DNA of 64,000 bases from positions 23,290-87,289 of the forward strand of contig CALJIF010000055.1 in NCBI GenBank assembly GCA_937974275.1. The letters are read 5' to 3'. The stretch comes from an uncultured Flavobacteriales bacterium. Lineage in GTDB: Bacteria > Bacteroidota > Bacteroidia > Palsa-965. Below, in pieces: positions 7,842-64,000 of this stretch. Under the pieces are notes generated by a model. The model was not told the DNA's origin. It worked only from the letters and a program-made list of their open reading frames with translations, and made no database searches. Numbering within the stretch: position 1 is the stretch's first letter; every line of letters begins with the position of its first letter. Position numbers and translations under genes: made by a program.

Positions 7842-10177
7842 GAGCTTATTACCATCGTGTGTTTACCGATAAAGGACTGCTTCTTGTAATCGGAGTTGGT
7901 CTGTTACTTACTTTTTTTTATTTCGGCCCGTTGGTTACGCATCCGAGCTCTCGCTACTTTGGAGCAGGTGGTGACGGTATGCAGATTTACTACCAGACCT
8001 ATTACCACGTGAAATATGATACCGCGTGGTGGCATCAACACAGTATGAATTACCCCGATGGCGAGAATATTTTCTTCACGGGAGCCCTGCCAATGTATAC
8101 GAATATCATGAAGATTTTCGGATCCGGCGCTGCTGAAGCATCGATCGGTTTACTCAATCTACTCATGATATTTTCGCCGTTGTTTGGAGCAATTTTCTTG
8201 TACGCACTTTTCAAGCATTGGAAGTTGCCCTGGTGGTATGCCGCATTATGTGGTGTAGGTATTATGTTTTGTTCGCCTCAACTCGACCGCATGTTGGGAC
8301 ATTATTCTCTTGCTATAAGCTTTATTATTCCGGCACTGATTTATTCGTTAGCTAGATTTTACGATTATCCGAGCATCAGATTGAGTTTGCTCATGGGCCT
8401 GCTCATCTTCTTTGCTGCAGCGACACATTTATACATGCTGGTGTTTTGTCTTGCGGCATGCGGCTTGTATTGGTTTGTTTTATTTATCACACGCGACCGA
8501 GGGTTTAGCCGAGTGAAATTTGTGGCGTTGCATTTCTCGCTTCAAGTTGTAATTCCGGTTGTGCTGACTCAGGTAATTCTCCAACTCACAGATCACGAAA
8601 CTGATCGAACGTCTATTCCATGGGGCTTCGAGGTGTTTACTTCGAATTGGAGCAGTGTATTTTATCCTTATTGGCGCGTTTACGAAAAATATGTATCCGG
8701 CTGGTTTTTTCCTGAGAGCGGCAGCTATGAAGGAGCAGCATACGTTGGCCTTGCAGCAATATTTGGATTGTTGGTAATCGTGGTAATACAATTAATTCGA
8801 CTGATACGCCGGCGATTTGATTTGATCTTGAGAATTTCGGATAAAAAAGTACTTAATATACTTGTTTTGACAGCACTCCTTTTATTGTTTCTTTCATTCG
8901 GTTGGCCGTTTCTGTTAAAAGACGACGGTAGTTGGATCAAGTATGCCGGACCGCTCAGGCAGTTCAGGGCATTAGGACGATTCGCGTGGATGTTTTTTTA
9001 CGTAGTAAATATTCTTGTTGTATATAGGCTTTGGAAATTAGTGGAGCATCGTACGAATTATTCCGGCAAAGCGTTGCGTTGGTTGGTGTCCATTATGGTA
9101 CCGGCATTGTTATTTTTCGACACCTGGGGCTCAGCATCACATCTTCAAGAACGATTAAATAATGAAATTGTGGAGTTGAGTGATACACAAAATATTCTTC
9201 CTCAAAACGCCTGGCTTCGAAAAATCAAGGTGAGTGATTATCAAGCCATACTTCCGCTGCCATATTATCATAACGGCAGCGAGGGACCACAGCTTATGCC
9301 GGCGAACCACGCCATAATTAATATCACTTATATTATTTCCCTTAAAACCGGTTTACCCATGCTTTCCATGCTTTCCGGGCGCAGTTCACTTTCGAAAGCC
9401 GCCGAGCACATTGCGATGGTTAAAGATCCAGTAAAACCACTTAGCTTGCTTGCACGCTTGCCCGATCAACGACCTTTTTTGGTGATTGCGCGTAAAGATG
9501 ACCTCAATACAAACGAAGCAGAGATACTTGACCTTTCCGAGTTGTTGTTTGAAACTCCGGATTACACTGTACATCGTTTGCAGCCTTCAAAAATGCAGGA
9601 GCGTGTTGCGCAACAATATTACAAACACCTTTTAGCCTTTGAAGCACAAAAAACTTGGCCCGTATGGCCGTATCTAAGTACAGATTCGGTTGTAAATTTC
9701 TCTTGTCGTGATTTTGAAGAAGTGCAAAATTATGGGCCACCTTTTCGCGGGAAAAAGTCAATGAAAGTAAATGGTGGACGTTTCGTTTATAATGTACTTT
9801 ACGATGCCAAAGTAGCCGGTGCAATTCCCGGAAATTACAGCATTACGTTCTGGTTAGCGAATTTCGACCAAGATTTAATTGCACGATCCTACGTAGAAGT
9901 GGCAAGCTACACCGGAGACCAATTAGATACCGTGGTGTATGGGAATATGTTTGAATCTTGCGTGGCAATTTCAGGGCACTGGTCGCTGGAAGAAAGAATC
10001 ATTAACATCAAACATCCCGAACAGCGTATCAAAGTAACGCTTTTCAATTTCGATATACCCGAGAAATCACCCATATACATCGATGAATTACTCATCAAAC
10101 CTGTAAACACACAGCTGTTTGATGTGCAGAAGGATTCTATTCAACACAATAACCGCACCTATTACCGCAAGCCGTGA
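7838..10177 (+). CDS. large polytopic membrane protein, YfhO/GT-C-like with a C-terminal periplasmic domain
   Basis: 779 aa. The N-terminal ~430 aa are multi-TM with a [11 protein letters not shown] motif reminiscent of YfhO, and the C-terminal ~340 aa are soluble. The start overlaps the upstream GT2 gene by 4 nt (ATGA coupling). Confidence 0.5.
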
Positions 10178-58318: not shown

Positions 58319-58321
58319 TAC

Positions 58322-59083
58322 CTACTCTACTTCCTTCTGCGCCTTCTTCTTTTCTGCTTTCTTACGCATACGCATGTTCAACAATTCCACCAGGAAGGCG
58401 AATGCCATGGAACTGTACACGTATTGTTTCGGAACTTCTACGTGGAATGATTCCATTACGAGTAAGATACCGATCATTAACAAGAATGCTAACGCTAACA
58501 TTTTTACTGTCGGATTCCGATTGATGAACTCGCTCACCGATTCGCTAAAAATGAGCATGATTACCATAGAGATAATCACCGCTGCAATCATGATAACCAC
58601 TTCATTCACGATACCTACAGCGGTAAGAATTGAATCGAACGAGAAAACGATATCAATAAATACAATCTGCATCACGATATTCATGATGGTTGGATATTTC
58701 CCTTTCTTTTCCTCCGGTGTATCATCTGCACCTTCCATCTTGTGGTGAATTTCAGAAGTCGTTTTTACCAACAGAAATATTCCTCCTGCTAACAAGATGA
58801 TATCACGTCCACTGAAATGAAAATCGAAAAACTCGATCAGCGGTTCTTTCAAACCAATAATCCACGTGATTGCAAACAACAACGCAACACGCATCAATAA
58901 CGCCAGAACGAGTCCTGTAAAACGAGCTTTCTTCTGTTCCTTTTTATGTTCCAGACGGGAAGCAATGATGGAAATGAAGATGATATTATCAATACCCAAT
59001 ACAATTTCTAAAACGGCCAAAGTCAATAAACTAATTAGTCCGTCAAGGGTAAAAAGGTGGTGAAATTGAGCTGCGAAATCCAT
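58322..59083 (-). CDS. TerC family integral membrane protein
   Basis: GIDNIIFIS…SFDSILTAVG…VMESFHVEVP motifs. Confidence 0.85.
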   Translation of the reverse strand: MDFAAQFHHLFTLDGLISLLTLAVLEIVLGIDNIIFISIIASRLEHKKEQKKARFTGLVLALLMRVALLFAITWIIGLKEPLIEFFDFHFSGRDIILLAGGIFLLVKTTSEIHHKMEGADDTPEEKKGKYPTIMNIVMQIVFIDIVFSFDSILTAVGIVNEVVIMIAAVIISMVIMLIFSESVSEFINRNPTVKMLALAFLLMIGILLVMESFHVEVPKQYVYSSMAFAFLVELLNMRMRKKAEKKKAQKEVE

Positions 59084-59196
59084 AGTTAGTTTAATTTGGA
59101 TGCAAAGGTAATGAGTATTTAAATCATCCCATAAAAATTAAAGTCACTGAAATACAGCTACTTGCAAATTTATTTAGTACCTTGTGTTGCATAGTA

Positions 59197-59235
59197 GTAA
59201 CATATGCATATATCTTTGCGTCATAAGGTTAAATG
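59197..59235 (+). promoter_or_regulatory. ECF-sigma-type promoter module copy A (GTAAC-N17-CGTC), overlapping a TAtcTTTG element
   Basis: GTAACATatgcatataTCTTTGCGTCATAAGGTTAAA. The same module with the same spacing recurs at 61565 and 62214. Confidence 0.4.
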
Positions 59236-59483
59236 TAAAACCAAGTAAATATGATCACAACATCGCTATTACTGCTTCAATTAACCGCTGCATCTCCGCA
59301 CTTGGAACAGTCGCCTCAAAAACTTTGGTCGTGGACCGGCTCTGAGCGACAAGTTTCTGTCGTGGTGGATAACAACAGTGGGTTTCGTGTCATTGGAATT
59401 CAATTATCCGGTTCTCGTATGACCACTCACCAACTGGTAATCCAATCCGGTAATTATCACATCAGCATTAATACTTCTCAACT

Positions 59484-59825
59484 ATGAGTATAGAAAACAC
59501 TAAAGCGCAGATGCGCAAAGGCGTGCTGGAATTTTGCATCCTCTCCATTCTTGCAGACGGTGATGCCTATCCGACAGAAATTATTGAGCGCATGAAACAG
59601 GCACAGTTGGTAGTTGTGGAAGGTACGTTGTACCCACTGTTAACACGACTCAAGAACATGGGCTTACTGGCGTATCGCTGGGAAGAAAGTACAGGCGGTC
59701 CACCTCGTAAGTACTATCGTCTGACAGAAACTGGAACCGAGTTCCTTCGGGAATTAGAAAACACCTGGGACGAGCTTGTTCAGTCGGTGAATACGGTTAC
59801 TAAACGCACTAATTCTAACGCTTAA
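59484..59825 (+). CDS. PadR family transcriptional regulator
   Basis: Winged HTH (GVLEFCILSILADGDAYPTEIIERMK…EGTLYPLLTRLKNMGLL…RKYYRLTETG). Confidence 0.85.
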   Translation: MSIENTKAQMRKGVLEFCILSILADGDAYPTEIIERMKQAQLVVVEGTLYPLLTRLKNMGLLAYRWEESTGGPPRKYYRLTETGTEFLRELENTWDELVQSVNTVTKRTNSNA

Positions 59826-59835
59826 TCTCCACGTC

Positions 59836-61524
59836 ATGAAAAAGACATTAACAATAAATATTAGCGGCATCGTTTTTCATATTGATGAAGATGCTTTTGA
59901 TAAACTGAAATATTATCTGGAAGCGCTGCGTATGCGTTTTAACCAGGAAGAAGGCCGTGACGAAATCATGACCGATATTGAATCGCGCATTGCCGAATTA
60001 TTAACGCAACGTAATGGTACTTCCAAACAAGTGGTTACCATCAGCGATGTTGATCATGTCATCAGCGTTATGGGCGAACCGCAGGAAATGGGCGGAGATG
60101 CAACCACGGAGCAGACCAATCATAACCGCGATTATAATACTGCGGATAATCGCAAATCGCGACGCCGATTTTTCCGTGACCCGGATGATGCTGTAGTAGG
60201 CGGTGTTTGTTCCGGATTGGGCCACTATTTTGACGTTGATCCGCTTTGGATTCGTTTAGGATTTGTGCTGATCTTCTTCGCATTCGGAACCGGATTTCTG
60301 TTCTATTTATTATTGATGATCATTATTCCTAAGGCAGAAACCACCGCGGACAAACTGGAAATGCGCGGAGAAGCAGCTGACGTGAATAATATTCACCGAA
60401 CGATTAAAGAAGAATTTGAGTCGTTTGGTGACAGAATGAAAAACTTCGGAAAAGATGCGGATCAATTCGGGCGCGACTTTAAGGGTAATGTAAGAAGAAG
60501 CGGTACTACCGCAGAACGTATCCTCGCCAACATATTCGAAGTAATGGGACGATTATTAGCTTTCGGGTTAGTCTTCATTGGTATTGCTTTACTGATCGGA
60601 TTACTGACATCCACATTCACGATAAACGAATTTGGTCCTGTGGAATTGGGCGATGGCATTGAGAGTTTCTTCCCGAACTCTACAGTTTATCATCTGGCAG
60701 TTACCGCATTCTTACTCAGCTTCGGCATTCCTATTTTGATGATGATTTATTGGGGAATTAAAATGATTTTCAGAATAAAAAATCGTCAGCGATTTGTTGG
60801 GATTACAGCCTTGGCATTATGGGTTACGGGCTTAGTACTTGGAGGATATGTCATCGCGAAAACAGCTTCGGATTACAAAGAAGAATCACGAGTTAAAGAA
60901 ATAATAGCGCTGGATCAACCACATGGCGACACATTGATTGTTGATGTTCAAATTGATCCTGAAATGATGAACGATGACTACGACAGTAACTGGAATAAAC
61001 GTCATCGTCTGGAGCGCCGCTGGAAAGGTTTACATTTTAAGGACAATCAACCCTATTTCGGTTATCCAGGCTTGAAGATAGTTCCATCAAACAGCGACAG
61101 TTTTGAATTGGTCATTTACCAATATGCTCGTGGTGAAAATGAGCGTGTGGCATTGCAACGTTCCAAGGAAATCAAATATCAAGTGACGTCTCAGGATTCT
61201 CTGCTGTTGCTAAGTTCTTATTTCACCATCGGAAGCGAGAAAAAATGGCGCGGACAACGCGTGATTGCTGAATTACGTGTTCCGAAAAATAAAGTTATAC
61301 ATCTGAGACCAAATACATCTGAAGTGTTGGATGACGTGGACAACCTCACAAACACCTACGATGAAGACATGGCGGATCGTCGCTGGAAAATGACCGAACG
61401 TGGCCTGGCTTGTATCGATTGTGCAGGTCTGGAAGCACGCGAAGGAACACGAGCAGCAGATTATCCTGCTCCAATTCCTCCAATTCCTCCGGTTCCTCCA
61501 ATTGAACCCAACAAAGACCGTTAA
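59836..61524 (+). CDS. PspC domain-containing membrane protein
   Basis: PspC motif (VVGGVCSGLGHYFDVDPLWIRLGFVLIFF) plus additional TM helices and a C-terminal extracytoplasmic domain. Sits directly downstream of padR. Confidence 0.8.
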   Translation: MKKTLTINISGIVFHIDEDAFDKLKYYLEALRMRFNQEEGRDEIMTDIESRIAELLTQRNGTSKQVVTISDVDHVISVMGEPQEMGGDATTEQTNHNRDYNTADNRKSRRRFFRDPDDAVVGGVCSGLGHYFDVDPLWIRLGFVLIFFAFGTGFLFYLLLMIIIPKAETTADKLEMRGEAADVNNIHRTIKEEFESFGDRMKNFGKDADQFGRDFKGNVRRSGTTAERILANIFEVMGRLLAFGLVFIGIALLIGLLTSTFTINEFGPVELGDGIESFFPNSTVYHLAVTAFLLSFGIPILMMIYWGIKMIFRIKNRQRFVGITALALWVTGLVLGGYVIAKTASDYKEESRVKEIIALDQPHGDTLIVDVQIDPEMMNDDYDSNWNKRHRLERRWKGLHFKDNQPYFGYPGLKIVPSNSDSFELVIYQYARGENERVALQRSKEIKYQVTSQDSLLLLSSYFTIGSEKKWRGQRVIAELRVPKNKVIHLRPNTSEVLDDVDNLTNTYDEDMADRRWKMTERGLACIDCAGLEAREGTRAADYPAPIPPIPPVPPIEPNKDR

Positions 61525-61564
61525 TCCTTTTAAAATAAACTTCATCAAAAAGTAACGCAAGGTT

Positions 61565-61600
61565 GTAACATTATCATTCACCTTTGCGTCATAGGTAAAC
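61565..61600 (+). promoter_or_regulatory. ECF-sigma-type promoter module copy B (GTAAC-N17-CGTC)
   Basis: GTAACATtatcattcaCCTTTGCGTCATAGGTAAAC. A 12-nt core CTTTGCGTCATA is identical to copy A. Confidence 0.4.
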
Positions 61601-61644
61601 AGAGCTGCTATTACAGGTTAGGTTTAAGTTCTGTTTCGTGCGAT

Positions 61645-61679
61645 GAAACCCGGGATCGCAGCCCCGGGTTTCTTTTTTT
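61645..61679 (+). terminator. intrinsic terminator/attenuator hairpin
   Basis: GAAACCCGGG-atcgcagc-CCCGGGTTTC followed by TTTTTTT. It lies between an ECF-type promoter module and the cupin gene start. Confidence 0.7.
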
Positions 61680-61708
61680 GTGCATTTTTGAAAAAAGAAA
61701 AAATTGGC

Positions 61709-62176
61709 ATGAACGCACAAGATCTCATCAACCGCTTACAATTGTTACCGCATCCCGAAGGAGGATTTTATAAAGAAATTTACCGCTCGGAAACCGGTTG
61801 CAATTACGAAAGTCAGGACCGATCCGTTCTCACAGGCATTTATTTTTTATTGCGTCAAAATGAACACAGCAGATGGCACGTTGTTGATGCAGACGAAGTT
61901 TGGCATTATTACGATGGCGCTCCGCTCGAATTATTTATTGCTTCTCCGGACAGATTGATTTACAATAAAATAATTCTTGGACCGGTTACTGAAGGTTACG
62001 AAGCCTCCTATGTCATTCCCCGCAATTGGTATCAGGCTGCAAGAAGCGCCGGCGAATGGTCGCTATGCGGTTGCAATGTAGCACCCGCATTCAGTTTCGA
62101 TGGATTCCGATTTCTTACTACAGAAGAAGGTGATGCTTTTCGCCTGATTTCCGCGGAAGCCGGCTTGATGGTGTGA
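61709..62176 (+). CDS. cupin-fold protein (DUF985-like)
   Basis: Start at MNAQDLINRLQLLPHPEGGFYKE, which is the conserved DUF985 N-terminus (…L.PHPEGG(Y/F)(Y/F).E). The longer ORF from 61643 would run through a terminator hairpin. Confidence 0.6.
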   Translation: MNAQDLINRLQLLPHPEGGFYKEIYRSETGCNYESQDRSVLTGIYFLLRQNEHSRWHVVDADEVWHYYDGAPLELFIASPDRLIYNKIILGPVTEGYEASYVIPRNWYQAARSAGEWSLCGCNVAPAFSFDGFRFLTTEEGDAFRLISAEAGLMV

Positions 62177-62213
62177 GCCAATCGTTAAAATTTGAAAAAA
62201 ATAAAAATTCAGG

Positions 62214-62248
62214 GTAACATTTCACCAATTCTTGCGTCTTACACATAG
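62214..62248 (+). promoter_or_regulatory. ECF-sigma-type promoter module copy C (GTAAC-N16-CGTC), degenerate
   Basis: GTAACATttcaccaatTCTTGCGTCTTACACATAG, followed 5 nt later by a hairpin. Confidence 0.3.
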
Positions 62249-62317
62249 AAGCGCCTCCCGACAGGGTCAGGTCAGGTTAACGGGAGGTTCTGTTTCTTGC
62301 AATTGGTGTGCAGAACT

Positions 62318-62360
62318 GGGCTGATTCATCTCTACGAATCAGCCCTTTTCATTTTATTTT
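62318..62360 (+). terminator. intrinsic terminator
   Basis: GGGCTGATTC-atctctac-GAATCAGCCC followed by TTTTCATTTTATTTTT. Confidence 0.75.
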
Positions 62361-62443
62361 TCCGTAGGAATTTCATTTCCGGACGCTCGTATTTTTCAGA
62401 AAACCTGTATACTTGCATCCGTATCATTTCAAGCGCTACTATT

Positions 62444-62797
62444 ATGGCACATCACGAGCACGACTCTCACGGACACGACACTGAAGGTAACCGCCAATAT
62501 TATCCTCAGGGATGGCATCTTCCATTAGTCGGATTAGTTGTTATTGCGTTAGCATTCTCATTACTTGCAGGCTGGATTCTGAACATTTCCGGCTCCGACA
62601 AATGGGGTAAACACGACGATCACGCTGTTGTTCACGGACACGGTGATGCGCATGGACACGACAATCATGACGGACACGGACACAGTCAACCGGCCGAAGA
62701 GAAAAAAGCGGAAGGTCAACACACGGATTCAGTGGCTGTTAAACCTGCTGCTGACTCTGCTCATACCGACAGCGTTAAGACAGAAGAGAAGCACTAA
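62444..62797 (+). CDS. histidine-rich single-TM membrane protein (117 aa)
   Basis: Sequence is MAHHEHDSHGHD… then TM helix LPLVGLVVIALAFSLLAGWIL then …HAVVHGHGDAHGHDNHDGHGHS. Followed by an intrinsic terminator. Confidence 0.5.
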   Translation: MAHHEHDSHGHDTEGNRQYYPQGWHLPLVGLVVIALAFSLLAGWILNISGSDKWGKHDDHAVVHGHGDAHGHDNHDGHGHSQPAEEKKAEGQHTDSVAVKPAADSAHTDSVKTEEKH

Positions 62798-62813
62798 AGT
62801 TAACTCCATACGA

Positions 62814-62850
62814 AGAAAGCCATCCCGAAACGGATGGCTTTCTTTATTTA
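62814..62850 (+). terminator. intrinsic terminator
   Basis: GAAAGCCATCC-cgaaac-GGATGGCTTTC followed by TTTATTT, after the His-rich protein gene. Confidence 0.7.
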
Positions 62851-62920
62851 TAGCGTTTCCGTAAACGCGAAAGTGTTAAAATGCGTATTTTTAACCACTA
62901 TAGAATAACACACACAACTT

Positions 62921-64000
62921 ATGAGTAACGTGGCCGCAAAACCAACAGGAATCAGCAGTGAGAAGTGGGCTGAATTTCGTACTGCCGTTCTGAATGATTT
63001 TCGAATTGTGAACGAAAGTCGTGAAGCCAGTTTAACGGGCAGAAAAGAAGTGCTCACCGGCAAAGCGAAGTTTGGAATATTTGGTGATGGCAAAGAATTG
63101 GCGCAAGTGGCGATGGCGAAAGTTTTTCGCAATGGCGATTTTCGTTCCGGATATTATCGTGACCAAACTTTCATGTTCGCGACCGGTAATTTATCCATCC
63201 GTGAGTGGTTTGCCGGATTGTATGCGCACACTGATGTAGATGCAGAACCGTCTTCCGGTGGTCGTCAAATGAATGGTCACTTTTCAACACGCAGTTTAAA
63301 TCCGGACGGCAGTTGGAAAAATCTGATGGAAATGAAAAATTCTTCATCAGACATTTCCCCTACTGGTTCGCAAATGCCACGATTGGTTGGACTTGCACTC
63401 GCATCGAAGCATTATCGTCAAAATCCGCAATTACACGATTCACAGTTTTCCATTTTTTCTAATAAAGGAAATGAAATTGCATTTGGAACCATTGGTGATG
63501 CTTCTACATCTGAAGGATTATTCTGGGAATCCATGAATGCTGCTTCGGTAATGCAAATTCCGATGTTGGTATCTGTTTGGGATGATGGTTACGGGATTTC
63601 CGTTCCTAAAAAATATCAAACTACTAAAGAAAGTATTTCCGAGGCGCTTGCCGGCTTTCAACGTACGGCAGATAAGCCCGGATTCGTGATCTTCAAAACC
63701 AAAGGCTGGGATTATCCGCATTTGGTAGAGACTTACGAGAAAGCGGCAAAAGTTTGTCGCGACGAACACACTCCTGTTCTGGTGCATGTTGAAGAAGTCA
63801 ATCAACCGCAAGGTCACTCTACATCGGGTTCACACGAACGCTACAAAACCAAGGAGCGTTTGCAGTGGGAATTAGATTTTGACTGTGTCAAGAAATTCAA
63901 AGAATGGATTTTAGCCACTAAGTTGGCGACACCGGAAGAGGTAGATGAAATTGAAAAGCAAGCGAAAGAGACGGTTAAAACAGAACGTCGCGCAGCATGG
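62921..64000 (+). CDS. TPP-dependent 2-oxoacid dehydrogenase E1 component (alpha/beta-fused type); 3' end truncated by window edge
   Basis: Translated in-frame to the window end with no stop. TPP-binding region …IAFGTIGDASTSEGLFWESMNAA… and overall E1-alpha-like organisation. Confidence 0.7.
   Translation, partial: MSNVAAKPTGISSEKWAEFRTAVLNDFRIVNESREASLTGRKEVLTGKAKFGIFGDGKELAQVAMAKVFRNGDFRSGYYRDQTFMFATGNLSIREWFAGLYAHTDVDAEPSSGGRQMNGHFSTRSLNPDGSWKNLMEMKNSSSDISPTGSQMPRLVGLALASKHYRQNPQLHDSQFSIFSNKGNEIAFGTIGDASTSEGLFWESMNAASVMQIPMLVSVWDDGYGISVPKKYQTTKESISEALAGFQRTADKPGFVIFKTKGWDYPHLVETYEKAAKVCRDEHTPVLVHVEEVNQPQGHSTSGSHERYKTKERLQWELDFDCVKKFKEWILATKLATPEEVDEIEKQAKETVKTERRAAW

Follow-up and report, generated by a model that had tools for sequence, protein, structure and literature searches.

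We analysed a 64,000-nucleotide (nt) stretch of DNA (64 kb; hereafter the window) from an uncultured freshwater bacterium of the Bacteroidia, in which a promoter-like motif occurs three times, as copies A, B, and C, close to genes for a PadR-family regulator and a PspC-type membrane sensor. Copies B and C are each followed by a short structured RNA, and we consider it likely that they are extracytoplasmic function (ECF)-type promoters of two paralogous small RNA genes, self-contained units that would act in trans. Each unit would run from the promoter GTAAC-N16/17-CGTC(T/A)TA through a 5' stem-loop and a near-invariant core to an intrinsic terminator. What we observe directly is the motif and its conservation, the covarying structure of the RNAs, and the synteny of the loci that carry them.

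Structure and conservation of the RNAs

The preliminary description of this DNA had reported three motif copies with spacings of 17, 17, and 16 nt and a 12-mer common to copies A and B (CTTTGCGTCATA), and all of this was borne out. The pattern GTAAC-N15-18-GCGTC has exactly three matches in the window (59197, 61565, and 62214), all on the + strand and within 3 kb, where shuffled sequence gives a mean of 0.30 and none of 100 dinucleotide-preserving shuffles reached three. The extended form TAAC-N16/17-CGTCWTA returned the same three matches against 0.12 expected. As B and C are paralogous units, the three copies do not represent three independent events, and selection on the motif is evidenced by its conservation across lineages and not by the count in the window. 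The motif copies and RNAs, in window coordinates, are as follows.

59197-59225, + strand: motif copy A, GTAACATATGCATATATCTTTGCGTCATA, an ECF-like -35/-10 pair on top of a sigma-A promoter
61565-61593, + strand: promoter B, with GTAAC (-35), a 17-nt spacer, and CGTCATA (-10)
61594-61681, + strand: small RNA B, about 85 nt, 5' end predicted from the sequence
62214-62241, + strand: promoter C, with GTAAC (-35), a 16-nt spacer, and CGTCTTA (-10)
62242-62360, + strand: small RNA C, about 115 nt, 5' end and size predicted from the sequence

RNA B opens with a 5' hairpin (AAACAGAGCU/AGUUCUGUUU, loop CAGGUUAGGUUU), continues into the core UUUCGUGCGA, and ends in a hairpin at 61645-61672 (loop AUCGCAGC at 61655-61662) followed by a U-run (T7) to 61679. 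RNA C has a 5' stem-loop formed by an outer helix, P1 (AGAAGC/GUUUCU), and an inner helix, P2 (CCUCCCG/CGGGAGG, the hairpin at 62254-62287, loop GGGUCAGGUCAGGUU), then the invariant core UUCUGUUUCUUGCAAUUGGUGUGCAG and a hairpin at 62318-62345 with its own U-run. A terminator scan recognized the last hairpin of each RNA, in keeping with the preliminary description, which had counted the hairpin at 62254-62287 as terminator-like too; that one is instead helix P2 of RNA C. The two sequences share the loop motif ACAGGKTMAGGT and the string GTTCTGTTTCNTGC, and their folds scored z = -3.1 (RNA B) and z = -4.1 (RNA C) against shuffled controls. No start codon was apparent on reading through either RNA, a reading made by eye and not by a systematic scan for open reading frames (ORFs).

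Searches against Rfam 15 gave no match at gathering scores anywhere in the window and, at E <= 10 over 59000-62950, only sub-threshold noise (E >= 0.18). A covariance model built from four C-type RNAs, all from lineages other than that of the window, found exactly two family members in the window, RNA C at 62241-62357 (E ~1e-12 to 3e-14) and RNA B at 61589-61681 (E = 6e-9). With the same model, all C-type RNAs scored E <= 1e-12, the B2 forms, which diverge more, were recovered weakly, and none of 45 unrelated control loci matched. By these comparisons we classify RNA B and RNA C as paralogues of one RNA family absent from Rfam, which we regard as a previously undescribed family of a known regulatory kind. 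It occurs in at least 10 lineages of uncultured Bacteroidia, nearly always right after a padR/HAAS-PspC-Toastrack operon, and is known so far only from uncultured Bacteroidia.

Comparison across lineages (cited below by locus numbers such as L003) separates two main types of RNA, C-type and B-type. In the C-type, the outer helix P1 is GAACA/UGUUU, and the inner helix P2 varies in sequence while staying complementary (CCUCCCG/CGGGAGG, CCUCUCU/AGAGAGG, CUUUCUG/CAGAAGG, CCUCCCA/UGGGAGG). The C-type loop carries GGUUAGGUCAGGU, a near-invariant segment reads UUUCGUGCAAUUGGUGUGCAG, and most terminator loops read UUUCGCAGC. B-type RNAs share with these the loop motif, the terminator loop, and UUUCGUGCAA, the core of the whole family, which is lengthened by UUGGUGUGCAG in the C-type. 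GGUYAGGU repeats, two or three per loop, always lie in the loop of the 5' stem-loop.

A consensus of the C-type RNAs from MAFFT and RNAalifold was poor, with misaligned stems, so an alignment guided by the covariance model was used instead. On this alignment, whose fit to the model favours the structure in any count of covariation, pairing was kept in 95.4% of cells, compared with 76.4% in shuffles and about 50% when partners were slid; changes on both sides of a pair (compensatory changes) were seen in 22 of the 28 pairs, and 0 of 500 shuffles reached the observed values. Because the slid controls fall short and the stem sequences visibly differ, we take the structural signal to be real. Covariation supports P1, P2, and the terminator.

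Among genomes, only a Lake Mendota metagenome-assembled genome labelled 'Bacteroidia bacterium' (L001) is close, with 86% DNA identity over 58320-64000, and a metagenome contig (L023) served as a second close comparison. Against these two, RNA B is identical at 89/89 positions and RNA C at 120-121/122, compared with an identity of 79-90% in coding sequences and of 72-81% in other intergenic DNA. As the RNAs exceed both coding and intergenic DNA in identity, the sequence comparison indicates that RNAs B and C are under purifying selection. Promoter B differs from L001 at only two positions, both in the spacer, and two of the three changes in promoter C relative to the close relative also sit in the spacer.

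The terminator-loop sequence (U/A)UCGCAGC is kept in most B- and C-type RNAs while the stem around it covaries (L003, L007, L009, L011, L064, L067, and L068); RNA C of the window is an exception, and its terminator differs. For an ordinary terminator such conservation is unusual, which suggests a function for the loop itself. In L007, a short tandem repeat of GTTCGGAGTCGGGA (about three copies, ~8395-8440) directly follows the terminator of a B2-type RNA.

The promoter motif and its proposed sigma factor

The association of motif and RNA was also seen when the search was made with RNA features only. A scan of JGI metagenomes with the loop, core, and terminator-loop motifs returned 53 loci, about 9 of them true family members, and in each of these a -35/-10 pair precedes the loop motif by 24-35 nt. 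The pair is GTAAC-N16/17-CGTC in all true members but L042, which has TTAAC-N17-CGTC, and it is present in none of the ~45 chance loci. Over all loci, we collected 27 distinct RNA promoters (GTAAC in 26, TTAAC in one), with spacers of 16 nt in 22 and 17 nt in five. Positions outside the search pattern are fixed as well: TA follows CGTC(T/A) in 27/27, and a T stands two bases before CGTC in 22/27. The spacer sequences themselves diverge widely, with the GTAAC and CGTC boxes retained. In ~1 Mb of fetched DNA, read on both strands, [GT]TAAC-N16/17-CGTC matched 28 RNA promoters, five sites upstream of padR (from three lineages), and six other places.

These data bear on whether the three copies could be an artefact of chance or duplication with no promoter or RNA function. 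Common ancestry does account for two of the three copies, B and C being paralogues, and low-information patterns do arise by chance, as the six unrelated matches in ~1 Mb illustrate. Still, the RNAs are conserved far beyond neighbouring coding DNA, compensatory changes occur in the helices, the RNA-promoter association is strict, and the boxes persist between divergent spacers across at least 10 lineages, the PspC proteins of which are only 45-54% identical to that of the window. We therefore regard an artefact as extremely improbable, and by sequence comparison it is already contradicted.

ECF sigma factors of Bacillus subtilis have the consensus promoters TGTAAC-N17-CGAC (sigma-X), TGAAAC-N16-CGTA (sigma-W), and TGAAAC-N16/17-CGTC (sigma-V). 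The RNA promoters resemble these in having AAC in the -35 box, CGT in the -10 box, and a spacer of 16-17 nt, and differ in that the -10 is lengthened to CGTC(T/A)TA. ECF promoters are characterized by AAC at -35 and CGT at -10 (PMC8103513), and the ECF architecture proposed in the preliminary description thus holds as a conserved, non-sigma-A promoter class. Sigma-A promoters of Bacteroidetes have a -33 TTTG and a -7 box with the published consensus TAnnTTTG (PMC7366714), and RNA B/C promoters across lineages differ from them in lacking TAnnTTTG: the box is missing from all C-type and all B-type promoters except copy B of the window, which comes close (CACCTTTG).

Alternatively, the motif could be a site for a transcription factor, either PadR or some other activator or repressor, at housekeeping sigma-A promoters. 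A PadR regulator is encoded next door, TTTG stands right before CGTC in copy A and in copy B of the window lineage, where it resembles a sigma-A -7 box, and the A/T-rich block TTAAAATT is conserved upstream of the C-type -35. We nevertheless find this reading unlikely. The motif has no dyad symmetry; its boxes are held at a fixed spacing of 16/17 nt and at a fixed distance from the first RNA helix, as -35 and -10 elements would be; TAnnTTTG is missing from most RNA promoters; and the palindrome GTACTATG-N5-CATAGTAC, a candidate PadR operator, is found upstream of padR only. Recognition by an ECF-type sigma factor is the best reading because of the AAC/CGT architecture together with the lack of both a TAnnTTTG box and dyad symmetry, and the sequences of promoters B and C suggest ECF dependence.

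The A/T-rich block lies ~20-30 nt upstream of the C-type -35 in the form (G)TTAAA(A)TT(C/T), at 62184-62193 in the window, at ~30 nt in L003, L007, L008, and L009, and at ~20 nt in L065. The block may serve as an UP-like element or as a site for a regulator. Some of the loci encode an RNA-binding protein with an RRM domain, and a sequence within its coding region, GTAACATCAATGT(T/G)AACGAAGC(G/T)CGTC, mimics the promoter motif but has a spacer of 18 nt; coding constraint has kept this false positive.

A possible sigma gene was noted at the P0011 locus (JGI 3300050046), known from its annotation, where an ECF sigma gene is annotated a few genes downstream of pspC. This gene is a candidate for the cognate sigma factor; the closer relatives of the locus do not have it, and no sigma gene turned up in them. 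The gene belongs to a minus-strand block inserted between pspC and the RRM gene, comprising the ECF sigma gene (204 amino acids), a gene for a 521-amino-acid protein, and one for a PKD protein, and its start lies ~25 nt from a small + strand gene call upstream of the RRM gene, at the place where a C-type RNA sits in related lineages. ECF sigma factors typically autoregulate positively, their motif standing upstream of their own gene.

In the mechanism we propose, an unlinked ECF sigma factor would switch on RNAs B and C, and in the window lineage the motif overlay at copy A would also boost the small ORF-padR-pspC operon, whose own promoter would be under sigma-A and PadR control. Once made, the RNAs would work in trans, using their invariant single-stranded segments either to pair with mRNAs or to bind a protein. 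In this scheme, the start of transcription, the sigma factor, the signal that induces it, and the targets of the RNAs are inferred.

Bacteroidota carry on average ~22 ECF sigma factors per genome (PMC7826278), and as of PMC7366714 an ECF target promoter motif was available for one factor of Bacteroides fragilis, EcfO, and for none of Bacteroides thetaiotaomicron. The small-RNA biology of the phylum is young, and almost no ECF target promoter motif is known in it. Here, a sharply defined non-sigma-A motif, GTAAC-N16/17-CGTC(T/A)TA, is tied to a covarying RNA family and to a HAAS-PadR-PspC sensor. If the sigma factor were found, the motif would be a ready-made probe for its regulon, and the system would be the first case in the phylum of an alternative sigma factor plus small RNA, as with sigma-E in Escherichia coli. 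This would offer a handle on stress-controlled RNA regulation in a little-studied phylum, with the practical limit that the carriers so far are all uncultured.

Independence and possible action of the RNA genes

Beyond the close relatives, the next PspC homologues are only ~54% identical to that of the window. Gene order is nonetheless kept as TerC (on the minus strand), an optional small ORF, PadR-PspC, intervening genes, and E1 dehydrogenase, and most relatives' loci carry one or two promoter-plus-RNA units downstream of pspC. The position of an RNA beside pspC is kept in the window lineage, L003, L007, L009, L011, L012, L018, L067, and L068; in L008, the cupin gene joins pspC directly, with no RNA between them, and the RNA sits after the cupin gene. 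The upstream pspC is the constant partner of the RNAs.

Downstream, the picture varies. Next after a B-type RNA comes a cupin gene in the window and L011, a convergent gene for a TonB receptor in L009, GrpB in L012, and a second small RNA in L007, L067, and L068. Next after a C-type RNA comes a small gene in the position corresponding to that of the His-rich gene (window, L008, L009, and L065), and elsewhere an RRM protein gene (L003, L007, L067, and L068), OmpA (L011), or a convergent gene (L018). Given this variation between lineages, the RNAs are best viewed as independent transcription units and not as leaders.

The preliminary description had offered both possibilities for the short terminated transcripts after copies B and C, namely, small RNAs or attenuated leaders. 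Comparative data support conserved, structured small RNAs. As cis-acting leaders, the transcripts would be attenuators or riboswitch-like elements controlling the cupin gene (B) and the His-rich gene (C). The cupin ATG is only 29 nt past the U-run of RNA B, so that read-through would enter the cupin gene, and a small gene follows RNA C in the window, L008, L009, and L065, its His-rich character having been shown for the window only. However, neither B-type nor C-type RNAs have a constant downstream gene, the His-rich gene of L003 is preceded by a TATACTTG box of its own and by no RNA, the L008 cupin gene follows pspC across an RNA-less junction, and no conserved anti-terminator pairing emerged. 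The synteny comparison likewise gave no evidence of cis control of the cupin gene by RNA B, the cupin gene of L009 lying elsewhere. We consider leaders very unlikely and keep to trans-acting small RNA genes.

Where a B-type promoter is present, it usually starts 14-50 nt past the pspC stop codon (41 nt for unit B in the window), and no terminator separates the two. RNA B therefore probably serves as the end of the operon transcript as well, and by analogy it could be released from that transcript, as are small RNAs of the 3' untranslated region type.

ECF-dependent small RNAs are also found in Vibrio (MicV/VrrA) and Fusobacterium (FoxI/FoxJ), and the small RNA MicL starts at the 3' end of a protein gene, whose terminator it shares. 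RNA B would likewise begin at the 3' end of a protein gene, with a shared terminator. The sigma-E-dependent small RNAs MicA, RybB, and MicL of E. coli are the established precedent (PMC8103513), and RNAs B and C are like them in being short and noncoding, with an ECF-type promoter of their own and an intrinsic terminator, near or within envelope-stress genes. They differ from them in having no similarity in sequence or structure (no Rfam match) and in being linked to a PadR/HAAS-PspC module and not to rpoE. The architecture is thus alike, but as there is no Rfam match, we do not regard RNAs B and C as homologous members of the sigma-E group. GibS is an intergenic Bacteroidetes small RNA with a noncanonical promoter (PMC7366714); RNAs B and C differ from it in that they match no Rfam family, a comparison in which the Rfam status of GibS itself was not checked. 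A literature search found no paper joining Bacteroidota with ECF-dependent small RNAs. A system that needs no promoter motifs, of the Cas12f-like kind, was considered and ruled out: motifs are conserved here, and of the genes read beside the RNAs, none was noted as Cas12f-like.

It is conceivable, by analogy, that the RNAs form the output arm of a Bacteroidia envelope-stress circuit, in which they would titrate the RRM protein by protein capture in the manner of CsrB and CsrA. The GGUYAGGU loop repeats, the conserved terminator loop UUUCGCAGC, and the RRM gene downstream in four lineages make such titration possible, yet we regard it as a quite speculative idea and rather unlikely to be correct. 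To our knowledge, Bacteroidota have no Hfq and also lack ProQ and CsrA, and if the idea were true, a phylum without these three proteins would have a new regulatory pair made up of an RNA and a protein.

It is also important to set out what weighs against two ECF-dependent, trans-acting small RNA genes, apart from the model-fitted alignment mentioned above. The P3 hairpin has no covariation support. Transcription starts and RNA sizes for B and C are predictions from the sequence. The window contains no sigma factor gene, the preliminary description having stated this for ECF sigma genes, and no ECF sigma gene was found in any family locus with available DNA (phmmer with RpoE and SigW; Pfam scans of small ORFs). 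No conserved complementarity of at least 8 nt to neighbouring mRNAs was detected, only self-matches and noise. Finally, copy A is ambiguous, in that its -10 overlaps a perfect sigma-A -7 box and the overlay is missing in most lineages.

Copy A, the sensor operon, and neighbouring genes

The region around copy A contains the following features.

58322-59083, divergent: TerC (Pfam)
59177-59197: candidate PadR operator, a degenerate palindrome, GTACCTTG-tgttg-CATAGTAG
59187-59218, + strand: sigma-A-type operon promoter, with a -33 TTG at 59187-59189, a 21-nt spacer, and the -7 box TATCTTTG at 59211-59218
59251-59487, + strand: small ORF of 78 amino acids with a hydrophobic N terminus, its stop codon overlapping the padR ATG
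59484-59825, + strand: PadR-family transcription regulator (Pfam PF03551, E = 7e-19)
59836-61524, + strand: HAAS-PspC-LiaI/LiaF_TM-Toastrack membrane sensor (PF04024, PF22571, PF22744, and a weak PF22564)

The HAAS match (PF22564) scored 20.5 bits against a cut-off of 27 bits. Pfam otherwise agreed with the gene calls of the preliminary description for PadR, PspC, and the cupin gene (Cupin_5); its His-rich membrane protein was also correctly called, with no Pfam match. A signalling dyad of HAAS and a PadR-like winged helix-turn-helix protein with PspC/LiaF-TM/Toastrack has been proposed for envelope stress (Ravi et al. 2024, PMC11237479). The PadR and HAAS-PspC-LiaI/LiaF_TM-Toastrack pair of the window matches this dyad exactly, and it differs in its surroundings, as the published system consists of proteins only, and the small RNAs, the palindromic operator, and the ECF-like overlay are extra here.

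Copy A cannot be read as a plain third copy of the module, as had been supposed. It matches Bacteroidetes sigma-A promoters, its -7 box TATCTTTG agreeing perfectly with their consensus and a -33 TTG lying 21 nt upstream. The arrangement TTG-N21-(T/C)ATATCTTTG stands upstream of padR in eleven lineages, that is, in all whose padR-upstream region was read. The ECF-like overlay GTAAC...CGTCATA, on the other hand, is present at copy A in 3 of these ~11 lineages, namely, the window lineage (L001 and L023), L008, and L018, and is missing at padR in L003, L007, L009, L011, L012, L013, L067, and L068. No related RNA follows it: with its filters off, the covariance model had no match at 59.2-59.5 kb, so the copy A leader does not add a third member to the family. 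From the sequence, we read copy A as a composite of a sigma-A-type padR-operon promoter, a palindrome, and an ECF-like overlay, and in the lineages with the overlay, the sensor operon seems to have been added to the regulon of the RNAs.

The palindrome GTACTATG-N5-CATAGTAC is centred on the -33 and occurs once per locus, solely upstream of padR, which makes it the natural candidate for an autoregulatory PadR operator. It is perfect or has one mismatch in at least eight lineages (perfect 8+8 palindromes at L003 5492, L011 5221, L012 3391, L013 5523, and L067 7518) and has three mismatches in the window; the lineages in which it is degenerate are precisely those with the ECF-like overlay. The GTAAC/CGTC motif was also considered as the PadR operator and ruled out, the palindrome lying elsewhere and once per locus.

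In place of an RNA, copy A would drive the 78-amino-acid ORF. Relative to L001, this ORF has 15/4/31 substitutions at the three codon positions, and this pattern, together with the stop codon overlapping the padR start, argues that it is a real coding gene. Small ORFs are found at the matching position in L009 and L011, too divergent to be called homologous by eye.

Around and downstream of the RNAs, the window contains these further features.

61683-61690: -7-like box CATTTTTG upstream of the cupin gene, read from the sequence
61709-62176, + strand: Cupin_5 (DUF985) gene (Pfam PF06172), a neighbour
62408-62415, + strand: -7 box TATACTTG, from the His-rich gene's own promoter
62444-62797, + strand: His-rich single-pass membrane protein, a neighbour outside the RNA unit, with no Pfam match and an ortholog at L003 9621-9896
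from 62921: E1 dehydrogenase (Pfam)

The sequence TATACTTG(T/C)ATCCG is kept before the orthologous His-rich gene of L003. In several lineages (L003, L007, L067, and L068), the RRM gene and a fatty-acid desaturase gene, with -7 boxes of their own, are inserted between the RNA and the His-rich gene. The small membrane protein itself is conserved in its N terminus and transmembrane segment, and has a tail rich in His in the window (HGHGDAHGHDNHDGHGH) but in Cys in L003 (CEKNGKCCAGENANEANC), which suggests metal binding with a lineage-specific ligand chemistry.

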